A stretch of DNA of 64,000 bases from Thermoproteaceae archaeon (GTDB lineage Archaea > Thermoproteota > Thermoprotei > Thermoproteales > Thermoproteaceae), in contig JAJHRB010000001.1 of the NCBI GenBank assembly GCA_020833025.1, positions 6,943 to 70,942 on the forward strand, given 5' to 3'. Position 1 is the stretch's first letter. The number at the start of each line of letters is the position of its first letter. The notes below the pieces were generated by a model, which was not told the DNA's origin, searched no databases, and saw nothing but the letters and a program-made list of their open reading frames with translations. Below, one piece after another: positions 1,124 through 15,415 of this stretch. The translations under genes were made by a program, and so were the position numbers.

Positions 1124-1793
1124 ACTAGCCCTGCGATGAGTTCTGCCTCCTCTCTACTCTCAACCGGCGGCACGGGGTCGATATCTATTACACGCATATC
1201 GCCATTGTAATCCCCTAGCGTCACTCTCGCGTAGAGGAGGCCCAGGTGCGAGAGCGCGTCCGCGACGAGCCCCCTGGCGCTATTGATCGTTGCGAAGACC
1301 GACAGCATTCTGCTTGGTCTCGGCGCGATGACTGTCACTCTCGCGAGGGGATTGCGCATGTAAGCGCGATGCTCGAGCACGCTTTTCGCGCCCTCCATGC
1401 TTGTCACCGGACCGTCTAAGTTCAGCCTCCACGCAGTCAGCAACAGCCACGGCCCCCTCATATCGACCTTTTCGAGCGAGGCGTCTGCGCATACAACCGC
1501 ATACGGCGGGCCGAACTTCGGGAGCCAGCTCAGCCTGTTGACGGCCAGTAGAGATGCCACTGGCGGGTTTATGCTGCGCTTTGCCAGAAGCCCGTAAGCC
1601 GCTGCCACGTACGGGTTCCTGATCCTCACTACTGCCGTGCCCGGAATGCTTCTGACGGGCATCTCTGTCACGTTCAGCGTCACTGCCCTGAGGCCCCTCC
1701 GCGCCAGCGACTCAACTATGAGCCGGTCGGAAACAGTCGGGGTGTCTGTGATGATATATACTGCATCGTCGCCGCCCGTGGCCCCTGATTCAT
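1120..1793 (-). CDS. LysX/ArgX (RimK-like) ATP-grasp-related protein, short and divergent; the promoter-proximal AUG at 1793 joins the ORF only via a -1 shift at 1785-1782
   Basis: The frame is open upstream of the tracked GTG (1683) and reads VYIITDTPTVSDRLIVESLARRGLRAVTLNV, which resembles a LysX N-terminus; C-terminal VIDIDPVP resembles the ATP-grasp ExN strand; first gene before argC/argB. Confidence 0.55.
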
Positions 1794-1877: not shown

Positions 1878-3031
1878 ATGGACGTGCCATCGGGGACGGC
1901 GCGCCGTACCTGAAATGTGTACTGTGCGGAGCTAGATACGAGCAGAACTACAGGCTGTACACGTGCCCCAGGTGCGGAGGCCTTCTTGAGGTGACCATCC
2001 CGCACAAATACTGGAGCCCGCGGGGCAGAGGCATCTGGCGGTATGCATCAATGCTGCCGCTAGGGAGCGGCATCTCGCTGGGAGAGGGCGGCACTCCGCT
2101 GGTTGAGTCGAGTCTGAGTAGTAACCTCTACATTAAGTTTGAAGGGACTAATCCCACCGGGAGCTTTAAGGATAGAGGAATGGCCCTTGGCGTTACAGTT
2201 GCGAGGGAGAGCAGGGCCGAGAAGGTGATAGTCGCGTCCACAGGAAACACTGCGGCGTCTGCCGCAGCGTATGCCGCGAGGGCTGGGCTGAAGTGCTACG
2301 TGCTGCTGCCCCGGGGCAACGTCGCGCGCGGCAAGCTCATACAGGCAGCACTTCACGGCGCTGAGATAATTATGATTAACGGCTTTTTCGACACTGCTCT
2401 CAGGTACGTGCTCGAGCACGGCACCAAGTACGCATATCCGCTGAACAGTTTCAATCCGTGGAGGCTGGAAGGCCAGAAGACAATTGCATTTGAGATATAC
2501 GAGGAGCTTGGATGTCCAGATTACGTAATAGTGCCCGTTGGAAATGCAGGCAACATCTCTGCAATATGGAAGGGGTTTAGAGAGCTGGGAGAGCTCGGTC
2601 TCTGCAGAAAGCTTCCTAGAATGGTAGGCGTGCAGGCAGAGGGCGCGGCGCCGCTTGCCGTGGCGTGGCAGAGAGGTCTCAAGAGCCCGCTATTTGTTGA
2701 CAAGCCCAAGACAATAGCAAGTGCAATTAGAATAGGCAGGCCGATTAACTGGCCCAAGGCAATGGCGGCAGTAGAGCAGTCAGGCGGCCTCTTCATCGCG
2801 GTTTCCGACAGCGAGATTGCCGAGGCTCAGAGGCTTCTGGCATCTAGAGACGGCATCGGGGCGGAGCCGGCGGGGGCTGCCTCCGTTGCAGCCGCGCTGA
2901 GGCTCAAGGTGAGCGGCACTGTAGTGGCCGTCGTCACGGGGCACGCACTCAAGGACCCCGACGTTATCGAAATAAGCGTCAGGGAGATAAAAGATTCAAG
3001 AGAGCTCCTCCTACTGCTGGAGGGAGCGTGA
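1878..3031 (+). CDS. thrC: Threonine synthase; the AUG at 1878 joins the ORF via a -1 shift at 1892-1895
   Basis: NPTGSFKDRG PLP-lysine motif, ASTGNT, VPVGNAGN; the Zn-ribbon CVLC..CPRC lies in frame upstream of the tracked GTG at 1991 with no in-frame ATG/GTG/TTG before it. Confidence 0.93.
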
Positions 3032-8874: not shown

Positions 8875-10091
8875 ATGGCGAGCAGCGCCTCGGGGCGAGC
8901 AGAATAGTACTTGCCTACTCGGGAGGTCTGGACACCACGGTAGCAATAAAGTGGCTAAGGGAGAAGTTCAATGCAGAGGTTTATACTGTCACTGTTGACG
9001 TCGGGCAGGAGGAGGACTTTGCAGAGATTGAGGAGAGGGCATACAAGGCAGGCGCAGTGCAGCACTTCTACATAGATGCAAAGAGAGAATTCGCCGAGGA
9101 ATACATATTTCGCTCTATTTTAATGAATGGAATGTATGAAGGGCTATACCCACTGGGGACCGCTCTGTCTAGGCCCCTAATAGCTAAGAGGGTTGTCGAG
9201 ATAGCCAGAAGGGTCGGAGCAGACGCAGTGGCGCACGGGTGCACCAGCAAGGGGAACGACCAGGTCAGGTTCGAGCTGACAATTAAGGCGCTCGCGCCTG
9301 ACCTGAAAATCATAGCGCCGGCGAGAGTGTGGGGCATGACGCGCGCTGAGGAGCTTGAGTACGCCAAGCGTCACGGACTGCCTGTGAGCGCCGAGCACAG
9401 GAAATTCAGCATTGACGACAATCTTTGGTCGAGGTCAGTAGAGGGGGGCCCGCTGGACGACCCGGCCGCGGAGCCCTCGGAAGAGGTCTTCAAGTGGACG
9501 GTCGCGCCAGAGAAGGCGCCAGACAAACCGACGTATCTGACGCTAGAATTTAGAGACGGGCTCCCAATTGCGATAAACGGCGAGAGAATGGACCCGCTCG
9601 CACTGGTGACCGCGCTTAACGGCATCGGCGGTGCAAACGGTATCGGCAGGATAGACCACATGGAGAGCAGGGTAGTGGGGCTTAAGAGCCGGGAGGTATA
9701 CGAGGCGCCAGCAGCCGTGATACTGTACCACGCGCACAGAGACCTCGAGAAGCTCGTGCTCACGCCGCGCGAGCTGAGATTTAAGCACGGGATTCTTGAC
9801 ACCACGTGGTCGGACCTAGTGTATCAGGGCCTGTGGGTCGAGCCGCTGCGCGTGGCGCTTGAGAGGGCAGCAGAGGAGATGGAGCGGTGGGTGACCGGCA
9901 CGGTGAGAGTAAAGCTCTACAAGGGCGCCCTCTGGATAGTGGGGAGGGAGTCGCCGTATAGTAGCTACAGCAGAGAGCTCGCCGACTACAATAGAGGGTG
10001 GTATCCGAGCGACGAGGAGGCCAGGGGATTCATTAAAATGTGGGGCCTCCACTCGCTGATCGCCATCAGGAGGCGCCGGCTGGCCGTCTAG
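8875..10091 (+). CDS. argG: Argininosuccinate synthase; the AUG at 8875 joins the ORF via a -1 shift at 8892-8895
   Basis: The essential [14 protein letters not shown]-loop lies in frame upstream of the tracked GTG at 9057 with no canonical in-frame start before it; [29 protein letters not shown]. Confidence 0.94.
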
Positions 10092-10345: not shown

Positions 10346-11563
10346 TCATGAGCGCGACCCCGAGCCCTCAAAGAAGTACAGCACAGCGGAAGGCCATGAC
10401 TTTGCTACTGGTGACACGTCGTCCACGCACCCTCCCACTATCTTGAGCGCCGCGAGCGCCATTAGGCCAATTCTGTGATCGCCGTGTGAGGGCAACACGA
10501 CGCCGCCTCTCCTGAGGGGCCCCCTCACGTGCAGTGTGCCGTCCTTGTACTCAGCATATGCGCCGAGCCTCCGCAGCACGTCGATGACAGAATTTATCCT
10601 GTCGCTCTCCTTAAACCGCAAGTGCTCCACCCCGCGGATTACTGAGAGGTCCTCTACCGTCGCGGCTGCCAGCGCCAGCGGCATGACTAAGTCAGTATTG
10701 TGCCTTAAATCTGCGTCAACTCCCCTGGCAAGCGCGCCGCTCACGCGCACGACGCCTCCTGCCTCGCTGATCCTGGCGCCCATTTTCTCCAGCGCCTCTA
10801 AGAGGGGCCTGTCGGTGCTGGCAACCGTGCACGCTATCTCCACGGTACCCCCAGTGGCGAGCGCCGCCACCGCGAGGAATGCTGCCAGGCTGAAGTCGCC
10901 AGGCACTTTAATGCTGCCGGGGCTTCTCAGCGTGCCGGAGACCTCCACGACGCTCCCCACGCTGACTCTCGCGCCAAAGGCCTTGAGAGCCTCGGCCGTC
11001 GCCTCGACAAAGCTCCAAGATCGCCTCTCGCCGAGGGGCTCCACGACTCCGCTTCCGCACAGCGCGGCGAGGTACATGAGGCCTGAGATGTATTGCGACG
11101 AGATGTCAGCCCTCACGCGCACGTGAAAGCTCTCGAGGCGCCTGCCCTCAACCACCACAAGGCCGGGCGCCCAGACGACTCTGGCAAGACCCCTCAAGGC
11201 GTCTACTAGCTCTCCGAGAGGTCTCTTTAGGAGAGTACCGCCGTATAGTATTGCAGTGATGCCTGGCACGCCTGTGTAAATGGCCGTGGACGCGCGCAGT
11301 ACGAACCCGCTCTCCATGACGCTAAAGGCTCTGAGGCGCTCCGGCTCTCTCCTATCAATCATCACGCTGGCTCCCTCCAGTCTCACGCTCGCCAGCGGTT
11401 TTACTGCCCTCAACGCTGCGATCACGTCATCGCTCAGCTCGACCCCGTCAATTATAGTCTCCCCGTCAGCAAGCGCGGCGGCAAGGATAAAACGCTGGGA
11501 GTACGGCTTCGACGGCGGCGCCGGGAATCTACCCCCGAGAGTGCCTCGCTCAATGCAGAACAT
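10346..11563 (-). CDS. aroA: 3-phosphoshikimate 1-carboxyvinyltransferase
   Basis: [32 protein letters not shown]. Confidence 0.92.
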
Positions 11564-12581
11564 GAACTACGTAGGAGGTGGCCCTTGCAACATCCTCAGG
11601 CCTGACCCTCTCCAGCACCCACCTCCCCAGCCTGACCACTAGCGGCATGTAGATGTACTCGCCGCGTCTCTTTTTGTCAAATTTTATCAGCGAGAGCGCG
11701 CCGGCAAGCTGCTCCCTCGACGCACGCGCCCGCGTTGGAAGCCCGAGCACCTCAAGCAGCGACCTCACGTCTGCAACAACGTCCTCGCGCAAGTAGCCCA
11801 GGTCGCGCGAGAGGTGGAGCTCTGCAACTATTCCGAGAGACACAGCCTCGCCGTGAAGGAGGCCCAGCACGCGCTCGAGAGCGTGTCCTACTGTGTGGCC
11901 TACATTCAGAACCTGCCTTATTCCCCTCTCCTCAAACTCGTCGATCTCAACCACTCTAGCCTTTATCTGAAGCGAGCGAAAAATTGCCGTCTCGAGCGCC
12001 CTCTCCTCCCGCCTCAGCAGCGCGTCCACGCCCTGCTTTATCCACGCGTAGAGCTCCTCGTCGAGCGCCACGCCATACTTCACCATTTCGGCAAACGCCG
12101 ACCGGTACGCCCTATCGGGCAGCGTGTCTAGCCATGACGTGTCGCAGAATATTAGCGAGGGCTGATAGAAGACGCCTATGAGGTTCTTGATGCTGCCGAC
12201 ATCGACCGCGCCCTTGCCTCCCAGTGCCGCGTCAATCATAGCGAGAAGCGTCGTGGGAACGCTCACGAGTCTAAGTCCCCTCATGTAGGTCCCAGCCGCA
12301 AAGGTAGCGACGTCGAGCAGCGCGCCCCCGCCCACGGCCACAAGGGCTGTTGACCTGTCGGCGCCTGCGCGCGCGAGAAATTCATATATCTTGAGCAGCG
12401 TGTCGAAACTCTTGACACCCTCGCCGCCCTTCAGTGCCAGCACGGGGACGCCGGGTATTGGCGGCCTGAGTCCCTCTTCGATTACCAGCACGGGTCTCTC
12501 TACCAGCTCTGAGTACGGGAGATCTCTCCCCACGACGACCTCGGTCATCCCGCGGCTATGTCTGTAAGCGAACCGCTTCAT
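11550..12581 (-). CDS. aroB: 3-dehydroquinate synthase
   Basis: [43 protein letters not shown]. Confidence 0.94.
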
Positions 12582-13522
12582 CGCAGTCTCACGAGCTCCT
12601 CGGCCCTCGCCGCCACGCTCTCTGGCGTGAGGCCGAAGTGGTGGTAAAGATCGGCAGGGCTCTTTGCGCTCCTGCCATAGGACTTGAGGCCCATGATGGC
12701 GATTTTCGTCGGCCTTGTCTGGGACAGATACTCGGCGACGGCGGAGCCGAAGCCGCCGTGAACCATGTGCTCCTCGACCGTGACAATAGCGCCGGCTTTG
12801 GTCGCGTATTTCTCCACCGTGGAGTAGTCGAGGGGCTTAACAGTGGGGAAGTGCACTACGGCGGCCGATATTCCCCGGTCTTTTAGCAGCTGTGCTGCGT
12901 CAATGGCGCACGGCAGCATGATGCCAGTTGTAAATATCGCAACATCGCTCCCCTCTCTGATAACATACGCCCTGCCCACCTCGAACTTGTCGTAGAGTGA
13001 ACAGGTAACCGGGACGTGAAAATCCCTCCCGACCCTTATGTAGGCAGGCCCCCTTATTGCTGCCGATGCCATGACCGCCCTGTATACCTCGCACGAGTCC
13101 GCCGGGACTATTATGGTGAAATTAGGGAGAACTCTAAAGAGTGCGACGTCCTCCAGCGCTTGGTGTGACGGGCCGTCGTACGCGTCAGAAAATCCTGCGT
13201 GAGTCCCAACGAGCCTGACGGGAAGCGCGAGCCTGTCAACGGCGTTTCTGGCCTGCTCCCAGCCCCTTGCTAGGAACGCCGCGAACGTCACGGCGTACGG
13301 CATAAAGCCGGCCAGCGCTAAGCCGGCGGCGATCCCGACCAGCGCCTGCTCCGCAATGCCAACGTTGAAGTATCTCTCCGGGTGTCTCTCAGCGAAGAGC
13401 CTGGCCCTTGTGGGCTCCCCCGTATCTGCGACGAGCACGACAACATCCCCCCTTAAATCTCCGAGATCCGCCAGCGCGCGCCCCAGCGCCTCCCGGGGCG
13501 TTAGCTCTTCTAGCCCCGACAT
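12578..13522 (-). CDS. tktC: Transketolase, C-terminal subunit
   Basis: [32 protein letters not shown]. Confidence 0.92.
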
Positions 13523-14342
13523 GCTAGAGACTGTGCGTACTGCAGGGCCTCGTCTCTCGATAGTCTCTGCCGGGGAGTTCCCTCGATGCCCGGCACTCCC
13601 CTCCCCCTCGCAGTTCTGGCAATAATCACTGCGGGTCTTGTGCTGCTCTCGGCCCTTTCAAGCGCCGAGACTATCTGCTCGTGGTCGTGCCCGTCGGTCT
13701 CGAGTACTTCAAAGCCGAGCGCTCTGAGCCTGCCCGGCAGGTCCCCCTTGCGCAGTACCTCCTCAACGCGCCCGTCGAGCTGTATGCCGTTGTAGTCCAC
13801 TATCGCGAGGAGATTAGTCAAGTTGTAGTGTGCCGCCGCGGCGAAGGACTCCCAGCTTAGCCCCTCGTCGAGCTCTCCGTCGCCAGTTATTAAGTACACG
13901 CGACCTCTGTTGCCCCTCAGCTTGAGGCCCAGGGAGAGGCCGACCGCCATGCTTATTCCCAGAGCCAGCGAACCTGAGTTGGGCACGTCGACAAACGGCG
14001 TGTCTGCCTCGGGGTGGTTCTGGAGGCGGCTGCCCAAGCTACCGGACTCCCTCAGCTCGTCGAGCGCTAGATAGCCCATTGCCGCGGCGAGCGCGTAAAT
14101 CGCGTGCACCGCGTGACCCTTAGACAGCACTAGGTAATTCCTGTTGCCCACGCCATTTGCTAGATTGAACTTCACTCTGCCAGTGCCGTAGAGCGCTACC
14201 AGTATGTCGAGCACCGAGAGAGACGACCCGAGGTGCATCCCGGGGTCGTAGCTCGCCATTAGGAGCAGGTATAGTCTCGCCCTGCACGCCAGCTCTCTCA
14301 GCTGCTGAACCCCGACCTCTCTAGTGCTGAGTACCCCTGCAT
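13510..14342 (-). CDS. tktN: Transketolase, N-terminal subunit; the AUG at 14342 joins the ORF via a -1 shift at 14337-14334 or 14313-14310
   Basis: HLGSSLS, LSKGHA, GSL..G, TPP motif GDGELDEG..N; the conserved first helix LRELACRARLYLLL is in frame upstream of ATG 14259 with no canonical start before it. Confidence 0.9.
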
Positions 14343-14434
14343 GGCCTGAAAGGGGGTCCGGTATTTAAGTAATCAGCACGTGCGCGCCACGCGCGCGGGT
14401 TTTTGTCCTTATAAGCAGACTAGGTAGCGGCCGC

Positions 14435-15415
14435 GTGGAGCGCTTGTTGAGAAACGTCGTGGAGGTAGTGACGCCCGAGGAGTTCTCCAGGCTGGGAGGC
14501 GGCGTGGCGTACCTCGGCTTCGAGCCGACCTGGCCAATACACGTTGGGTGGCTCGTGTGGGCTTTCAAGCTCGCAGAGCTCAAGGAAGCCGGCTTCGACG
14601 TGGTGCTGCTCGTCGCGACGTGGCATGCGTGGATAAATGACAAGGGGTCCGTGGAGGAGCTGAGGGAGCACGGCCGTAAAATAAAGTCATTTATCGAGAA
14701 AATTAGCAATTTCAAATATGTCAATAGCGACGACATTGTCAGCGACCCGAAGTACTGGGAGCTGGTGGTCAGGGTGGCGAAGGTGACCTCTCTGGCGAGA
14801 GTGAGGCGCGCGATACCAATAATGGGCAGGCAGGCCGAGGAGGTCATGCTCGACTTCTCGAAACTGCTGTACCCGGTCATGCAGGTCGCCGACATGCTCT
14901 ACCTTGGTGTCGACGTGGCGGTAGGGGGGCTCGACCAGCGTCGCGCTCACATGCTGGCAAGGGATGCGGCGGAGAGACTCGGCCTCAAGAAGCCGGTAGC
15001 CCTTCATGTGCCCGTGATCACCTCGCTCTCTGGCGTTGGGAGAATGGAGGGCATTCACGGAGAGCTTGACGAGATGTACGCAATGTACAAAATGAGCAAG
15101 TCGAGGCCGAGTAGCGCAATATTCGTCACGGACTCCGATGAGGAGATTCGCAAGAAGGTCTGGCTCGCGTACTGCCCGCCGAGGGAGACAAGGTTCAACC
15201 CTGTGTTTGAGATCGCAGCATACCTCCTCATCCCATACGCCGGGCCTCTCGAGGCAGGCGGGCGCCGCTACGAGGACCCGCGCGCGCTTGAGGGAGACTA
15301 CAGGAGCGGTGCCATCGATCCCAGGACTCTTAAGGAGGCCGTGGCGTCCGGCCTCATATCTTTATTCTCCAAGCTTAGGAGCTGCGCCGTTGGCAAGCCC
15401 GGCACAGCGGCATGA
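14435..15415 (+). CDS. tyrS: Tyrosine--tRNA ligase
   Basis: YLGFEPT, HVGW (HIGH-like), YPVMQVAD, GGLDQR, KMSKS. Confidence 0.95.
   Translation: MERLLRNVVEVVTPEEFSRLGGGVAYLGFEPTWPIHVGWLVWAFKLAELKEAGFDVVLLVATWHAWINDKGSVEELREHGRKIKSFIEKISNFKYVNSDDIVSDPKYWELVVRVAKVTSLARVRRAIPIMGRQAEEVMLDFSKLLYPVMQVADMLYLGVDVAVGGLDQRRAHMLARDAAERLGLKKPVALHVPVITSLSGVGRMEGIHGELDEMYAMYKMSKSRPSSAIFVTDSDEEIRKKVWLAYCPPRETRFNPVFEIAAYLLIPYAGPLEAGGRRYEDPRALEGDYRSGAIDPRTLKEAVASGLISLFSKLRSCAVGKPGTAA

Follow-up and report, generated by a model that had tools for sequence, protein, structure and literature searches.

Bacterial attenuation systems (trpL, pheL, thrL, ilvL, leuL) place a short leader ORF at the operon head, where ribosome stalling at codons for the pathway product reports on charged tRNA and feeds a terminator/antiterminator switch; multi-product operons, as with ilvL, have codons of more than one kind. 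In Gram-positive bacteria, T-box riboswitches act across whole regulons of biosynthesis and synthetase genes and rely on one specifier codon in a structured RNA. In archaea, where we know of neither attenuators nor T-boxes, the matching of amino-acid synthesis to supply remains, to our knowledge, largely unknown. A leaderless mRNA also has no 5' UTR in which a riboswitch could be housed.

Frameshifting provides a second set of comparisons. The early +1 shifts required in bacterial prfB (RF2) and eukaryotic antizyme occur at a stop codon at a rate set by slow A-site decoding, and close a feedback loop by sensing release factor or polyamines. The hungry-codon -1 shift studied in E. coli by Gallant and Lindsley depends on a re-pairable P-site codon and a limiting A-site aminoacyl-tRNA, needs no stimulatory structure, and is there an error or laboratory phenomenon (PMC8211752, PMC5009743). 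That a single tRNA can slip in the P site while the A site is vacant, when aminoacyl-tRNA is limiting, is established in E. coli (PMC8211752, PMC5009743), and Atkins et al. (2016) knew of no natural example in which starvation frameshifting yields a useful trans-frame protein (PMC5009743). Among archaeal cellular genes, fucA1 of Saccharolobus solfataricus undergoes a -1 frameshift mid-gene at an A_AAA_AAU heptamer, without any link to amino-acid supply; a 2021 review names it as the sole reported archaeal case of -1 PRF (PMC8211752).

Here we analyze the head of the tktN-tktC-aroB-aroA operon in a 64,000-nucleotide stretch of DNA (the window) from a Thermoproteaceae archaeon (assembly GCA_020833025.1, contig JAJHRB010000001.1), the source being a metagenome-assembled genome (MAG) of 126 contigs. 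An earlier note on this stretch had proposed that tktN is entered by ribosomal slippage at two sites that read out Tyr and Phe as a possible OR gate. Comparative sequence analysis shows how the locus is laid out and conserved, that no other plausible start is present and that a rule links codon to pathway in at least 15 genes, and it supports the proposed interpretation; that slippage occurs, that starvation governs it and that both N-termini are made is inferred and has not been directly observed.

Results

An out-of-frame ORF overlaps the start of tktN

The gene for the transketolase N-terminal subunit, tktN (13510-14337, minus strand), has its body in the -1 frame of a short leader ORF (14298-14342, minus strand), which runs from ATG 14342 to TGA 14300-14298, encodes MQGYSALERSGFSS* and is accordingly in the +1 phase relative to tktN. 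The minus-strand sequence of the leader, ATG CAG GGG TAC TCA GCA CTA GAG AGG TCG GGG TTC AGC AGC TGA, contains two codon-aligned runs of four G's, each made up of the last G of one codon and a following GGG codon. Slip site 1 (14331-14337, minus strand) consists of G_GGG at 14337-14334 and the Tyr codon UAC at 14333-14331, and slip site 2 (14307-14313, minus strand) of G_GGG at 14313-14310 and the Phe codon UUC at 14309-14307. A -1 step at site 1 would produce MQG-VLSTREVGVQQLRELACR..., and the same step at site 2 MQGYSALERSG-VQQLRELACR.... Re-reading of the sequence bore out the earlier note on each of these points: the ATG and the encoded peptide, the positions of both G runs, the Tyr and Phe codons as the only aromatic codons of the leader, and entry into the TktN frame by a shift at either site with both predicted N-termini reproduced.

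A TATA-like box (TTAAATA, 14362-14368, minus strand) begins 26 nt upstream of the leader ATG. Upstream of the ATG of ordinary long ORFs in the window's genome, 6-mers made up of A and T alone are most frequent at -27 (range -30 to -25), which is the signature of leaderless mRNAs, and the spacing between TTAAATA and ATG 14342 matches the modal spacing of these ordinary leaderless starts. In the region before ATG 14259, the annotated start of tktN, no TATA-like run comparable to TTAAATA was found.

Downstream, the four genes of the operon are chained via overlapping stops and starts. The first 13 nt of tktC (transketolase C-terminal subunit; 12578-13522, minus strand; Transket_pyr and Transketolase_C) are shared with the end of tktN, aroB (3-dehydroquinate synthase by Pfam; 11550-12581, minus strand) joins tktC through an ATGA overlap, and aroA (EPSP synthase by Pfam; 10346-11563, minus strand) overlaps aroB by 14 nt. 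On the other strand, a divergent gene for a TyrRS-like class-I synthetase of the W/Y type (14435-15415, plus strand) uses an in-frame GTG as an ordinary leaderless start, some 25 nt beyond CTTATAAG; unlike the TrpRS gene elsewhere in the genome, it has no frameshift leader.

Measured against described mechanisms, the leader meets the requirement for P-site slippage, since at both runs the P-site tRNA could pair just as perfectly one base further upstream. It also meets that for a hungry codon, the A-site codons being Tyr and Phe, which are meaningful for an operon that feeds the shikimate pathway. The A-site re-pairing of the canonical -1 PRF heptamer (X_XXY_YYZ) is not met, UAC becoming GUA and UUC becoming GUU after the step. 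No stimulatory hairpin or pseudoknot was detected, the 100-nt leader folding no better than shuffled sequence (z = +0.67), and a search of 14150-14480 on either strand returned no Rfam match up to E = 1. A G-quadruplex was considered and rejected, most relatives carrying just three G runs and the window two.

The leader qualifies as a leader peptide in the sense of bacterial attenuation, being a short ORF in which the regulated amino acids are encoded, and with its Tyr, Trp and Phe codons across the genus it resembles ilvL in reading more than one product. It differs from those systems in that terminator and antiterminator alternatives between leader and tktN are absent: the leader overlaps the enzyme gene, to which it would be fused by the shift, and no significant structure is present. 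Moreover, it carries a single codon per amino acid rather than a run and lies on a putative leaderless archaeal mRNA. Compared with the T-box, the leader lacks a structured RNA, and its codon would be read on the ribosome. The prfB and antizyme shifts resemble it in their early position, whereas a shift in tktN would be -1, at a sense codon, and would sense an amino acid. The hungry-codon shift of E. coli shares the re-pairable P-site codon, the limiting A-site aminoacyl-tRNA and the dispensability of a stimulatory structure, but here the shift would be a normal, selected route in many operons. None of these families (attenuation, T-box, prfB/antizyme, hungry-codon shift) fits as a whole, and a literature search found no published description of this leader system, including in Pyrobaculum.

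The N-terminal region of TktN lacks a conventional start

The open tktN frame extends from 14364 to 13510, and the sole ATG, GTG or TTG in it before the motif YDPGMHLGSS is ATG 14259, three codons ahead of the motif. The encoded protein matches Pfam Transketolase_N (PF00456; 3e-34) and the following gene matches PF02779 and PF02780, so that the criterion for a split archaeal transketolase is met. The body of tktN is intact, with 70-76% identity to relatives and no internal stops. Within the open frame, similarity to relatives sets in at residues 8-20 and the DXP_synthase_N profile aligns from residue 15, in both cases well upstream of ATG 14259 (residue 36). In two outgroup genera the approximately 30 residues before YDPG contain the same helix (...LKEIACRARKYLLL...) and are encoded from an ordinary in-frame ATG. 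The number of residues before YDPG is 33 in an outgroup protein and would be 31 in the site-2 slip product.

ATG 14259 was rejected as the sole start, the frame upstream of it being conserved coding sequence that the outgroups also encode; initiation there is disfavored because the conserved N-terminal helix would be lost. In the window and in two relatives (L017, L018) no GTG, TTG or ATG yields this helix. A GTG start was likewise rejected, the GTG being a by-product of G|UGG in the relatives and missing from the window, as was a Shine-Dalgarno-like role for GGGG ahead of a non-canonical start: the candidate codon in argG varies between ATA, GTA, ATC and ATT, which is Ile/Val-like and not start-like. 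A CUG start at about 14301, which the earlier note had named as an alternative that would refute its reading, is not needed and is disfavored, ATG 14342 standing at the leaderless position relative to the TATA box.

Public Pyrobaculum tktN records are either 267 aa long, from the by-product GTG (MERGVSEL...), or 246-249 aa long, with a start three codons before YDPG, and the window's own TktN is deposited with the ATG 14259 start (249 aa). We found no public protein record that reflects the leader ATG as the tktN start.

The leader is retained across the genus

The locus was compared in 18 members of the genus, the window and 17 others, including single-contig genomes of 1.77-2.44 Mb. An out-of-frame leader ATG, from which a -1 step would be needed to reach tktN, is kept in all 18, with a TATA box at -26 to -28 in most relatives. 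In the relatives zero to two extra codons separate the ATG from [C/G]AG GGG TAY, and typical leaders read MQGYLQSGWKEGFRA or MSQGYLLSGWKEGFQN. The Tyr site (G_GGG UAY) is present in 18/18 genus members, while the Phe site (G_GGG UUY, GAG GGG UUU in relatives) and an additional Trp site (UCG GGG UGG) are each present in 15/18. The conservation of both sites in orthologs, which the note had named as a check, is therefore borne out, and the relatives add a third aromatic codon. The sites are invariably ordered Tyr, Trp, Phe, and aromatic codons occur almost exclusively directly after G_GGG, where TAT/TAC and TTT/TTC vary synonymously. At least seven indel events have occurred in and after the leader, all in multiples of three. 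The Trp unit is missing in the window, L017 and L018, where the in-frame GTG was lost along with it. A metagenome scan for further Pyrobaculum tktN heads returned only distant transketolases.

The out-of-frame ATG and the G_GGG-aromatic sites in 18/18 genus members, together with the match of codon to pathway in 15 genes described below, are more than chance.

Genome scans recover the same architecture on other biosynthesis genes

The window's genome was scanned for an ATG preceded by an A/T run (-34 to -18), an ORF of at most 45 codons in the ATG frame with a codon-aligned homopolymer of four, and a -1 frame that stays open over 120 codons or more and lacks a canonical start upstream of the ATG; the scan was blind to codon identity. 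It returned 23 matches, of which approximately 13 are real genes, and 12 of these are the first genes of amino-acid biosynthesis units by NCBIfam and Pfam. The TATA filter made the scan specific: without a promoter filter it was uninformative in this 63% GC genome (54 matches for G -1 versus 56 for C -1). In the strictest class, with the first canonical start beyond the leader ORF, the mirror +1 control gave one GGGG match versus ten for -1.

Besides tktN with its Tyr and Phe sites, the scan recovered isopropylmalate synthase (IPMS, leuA; UCG GGG CUC, Leu; contig C30 of G000, as are the contigs that follow), homocitrate synthase (GCG GGG AAA, Lys; C39), citramalate synthase (cimA; UCG GGG AUC, Ile; C65), carA (UUG GGG CGA, Arg; C46), argG (UCG GGG CGA, Arg), thrC (UCG GGG ACG, Thr), trpE (UCG GGG UGG, Trp; C59), a trpB2-like gene (UCG GGG UGG, Trp; C88), ilvB (UCG GGG CUC, Leu; C116), a Cys-synthase-like gene (CUG GGG UGU, Cys; C74) and a lysX-like gene (CAG GGG CCA, Pro). 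Orthology searches from a relative's scan added a pheA-like gene (CCG GGG UUU, Phe; C19), trpD (UCG GGG UGG, Trp; C59) and TrpRS (AUG GGG UGG, Trp; C31). The occurrence of GGG UGG on trp genes elsewhere, a further check named by the note, is met in the same genome by trpE, trpD, trpB2 and TrpRS, and the TrpRS leader parallels the inclusion of synthetase genes in T-box regulons.

The same scan of a finished relative (1,826,402 bp) recovered the same genes and more. In this genome three sites, GGG GUA (Val), GGG CUC (Leu) and GGG AUU (Ile), stand at the head of ilvB, and two, GGG AUU (Ile) and GGG ACA (Thr), at that of thrC. Each of the three paralogous synthases retains its particular codon in all relatives examined (Lys 6/6, Leu 6/6, Ile 7/7). 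In all, the site codon falls within the product set of the pathway in 15/15 genes, which none of 200000 permutations equalled; with amino-acid usage from long ORFs as the baseline, the joint chance of the codon matches is approximately 1e-21, or 1e-18 without the two least certain genes.

Several of these genes appear to offer no route around the leader. The argG head (8875-8907, plus strand) reads ATG GCG AGC AGC GCC TCG GGG CGA GCA GAA TAG, an ORF in the +1 phase to argG. A TAA two codons ahead of GGG closes the argG frame in 11 relatives, and no start in that frame precedes the PP-loop; the -1 step at UCG GGG CGA would thus be the only route to ArgG, and dependence on it appears close to forced. 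The sensor codon CGA is the rarest Arg codon in the finished relative G007, with 3% of Arg codons. The thrC head (1878-1913, plus strand) reads ATG GAC GTG CCA TCG GGG ACG ... TGA, while relatives have ATG GMG GGG ATT TCG GGG ACN, giving an Ile and a Thr site, and the Zn-ribbon N-terminus of ThrC is without an in-frame canonical start. More generally, argG, thrC, cimA and the genes for homocitrate synthase and IPMS have no in-frame start ahead of essential motifs. The lysX-like head (1716-1793, minus strand; ATG AAT CAG GGG CCA CGG...) has a Pro site only; the leader of the finished relative has Pro (GGG CCA), Lys (GGG AAA) and Arg (GGG CGA) sites, which fit a LysW-type pathway serving Lys and Arg/ornithine.

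Discussion

We regard it as probable that the mRNA is leaderless and that, in a process so far deduced from sequence comparison, P-site tRNA-Gly slips by -1 at a hungry aromatic codon to give TktN. Translation of the putatively leaderless tktN-tktC-aroB-aroA mRNA would begin at AUG 14342, and in the leader frame it would run for 14 codons and then terminate. Under a shortage of charged tRNA-Tyr (at site 1) or charged tRNA-Phe (at site 2), the A site would stand empty with peptidyl-tRNA-Gly on GGG in the P site, and this tRNA could re-pair one base back on G_GGG, because the base preceding GGG is also G. The new A-site codon, GUA or GUU (Val), would be read at once and the ribosome would continue in the tktN frame to full-length TktN; at any sister site the new A-site codon would start with G and specify Val, Ala, Asp or Glu. 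With aromatic amino acids plentiful, most ribosomes would read through and terminate at UGA 14300. Each site would be sufficient alone, making the leader an OR gate with the inputs Tyr and Phe in the window and Tyr, Trp and Phe in most relatives. The overlapping starts of tktC, aroB and aroA would probably couple these genes to the slip. Initiation at the 5' AUG, the slip, its starvation dependence and the coupling to tktC, aroB and aroA are all inferred.

Some observations count against slippage. NNG GGG is not avoided in the long ORFs of the finished relative G007 and is in fact over-represented (observed/expected 1.63). Since ordinary genes do not avoid it, G_GGG alone cannot be strongly slippery, and an extra contributor would have to be involved, whether closeness to the start with a very short nascent chain, the favored UCG in the E site, or a long stall. 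There is also no stimulatory structure, and ARAGORN detected only tRNA-Gly(UCC) and tRNA-Gly(GCC) in G007, where intron-rich tRNA genes may be missed. Finally, 15 of the 18 genus members possess the in-frame GTG.

This GTG is central to the idea that the leader is a regulatory uORF without a frameshift, in which ribosomes stall at the aromatic codons and TktN starts internally, at the GTG at -24 in most relatives and at ATG 14259 or CUG 14301 in the window, with the stalled or terminating ribosome modulating internal initiation. Public annotations use just such starts (the GTG, 267 aa, or the ATG at -3, 249/246 aa), and where a species retains the GTG, a share of internal initiation at tktN cannot be ruled out. 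However, the GTG follows automatically from G|UGG and is missing in three genus members, among them the window, while ATG 14259 lacks a TATA-like run and would delete a helix that the outgroups encode. The five genes without an in-frame start ahead of their essential motifs weigh further against it: because these sister cases lack such starts, a single mechanism for the whole gene set needs a shift. We consider a uORF of this kind unlikely to be the explanation. A strong doubt attaches also to frame correction without sensing, either by a constitutive -1 frameshift or by RNA polymerase adding one G at the G4 run. Reiterative transcription close to the transcription start is known in bacteria, the putative 5' end is 5-8 nt away from the G run, and the protein made after insertion of a single G would be identical to that from a -1 slip. 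Yet G4 is short for slippage during elongation, and neither variant explains why an end-product codon follows the run in 15/15 genes or accounts for the retention of several sites, 15-30 nt from one another, whose cognate codons differ.

An assembly or sequencing error, or a decaying pseudogene, is a natural concern in a MAG of 126 contigs, homopolymer errors being common in such assemblies. The earlier note had judged sequencing error very unlikely, and the recurrence of the same frame relation and sites in 17 independent genomes, several of them finished, effectively refutes it; the intact body of tktN speaks against decay, and this explanation retains hardly any credibility.

Returning to slippage at hungry codons, we lean toward the broader proposal of a regulon that spans the genus Pyrobaculum and comprises at least 15 amino-acid biosynthesis genes or operons as well as TrpRS. 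In each, a leaderless mRNA would open with a mini-ORF in the wrong frame that presents a single hungry sense codon after G_GGG as the sensor, and the -1 slip of tRNA-Gly would be the sole entry to the enzyme frame, tktN being a three-input OR gate (two-input in the window). Such a regulon would be an archaeal counterpart of attenuation and the T-box and the first natural case of starvation frameshifting for a needed protein. Judged from the sequences, it looks like an undescribed way of sensing amino-acid shortage, in which four G's and one codon within the first few codons form a sensor that costs almost no sequence. If the proposal is true, hungry-codon frameshifting turns from an error into a selected regulatory device, known archaeal -1 frameshift genes rise from one to dozens, and the public start annotations of many Pyrobaculum biosynthesis genes, tktN for example, are wrong. 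It would also supply a predictive rule, by which the codon after GGGG names the amino acid that the gene responds to, and this could help to assign functions to paralogues such as IPMS, homocitrate synthase and citramalate synthase.

In other genera of the order (L113-L118, L132-L139, L147, L148, L155, L156), argG and cimA are also without in-frame canonical starts, and GGGG is absent from them. For argG there, a -1 step at CUU AAA C/A_AAC, ahead of CGG (Arg), is a possible variant, and for cimA a +1 step at GAA_A, ahead of AUC (Ile). The argG and thrC leaders have the motif GGAAACCCAG in common in these genera, in which thrC has a 5-codon mini-ORF, ATG GAA ACC CAG NCA TGA, overlapping its ATG.
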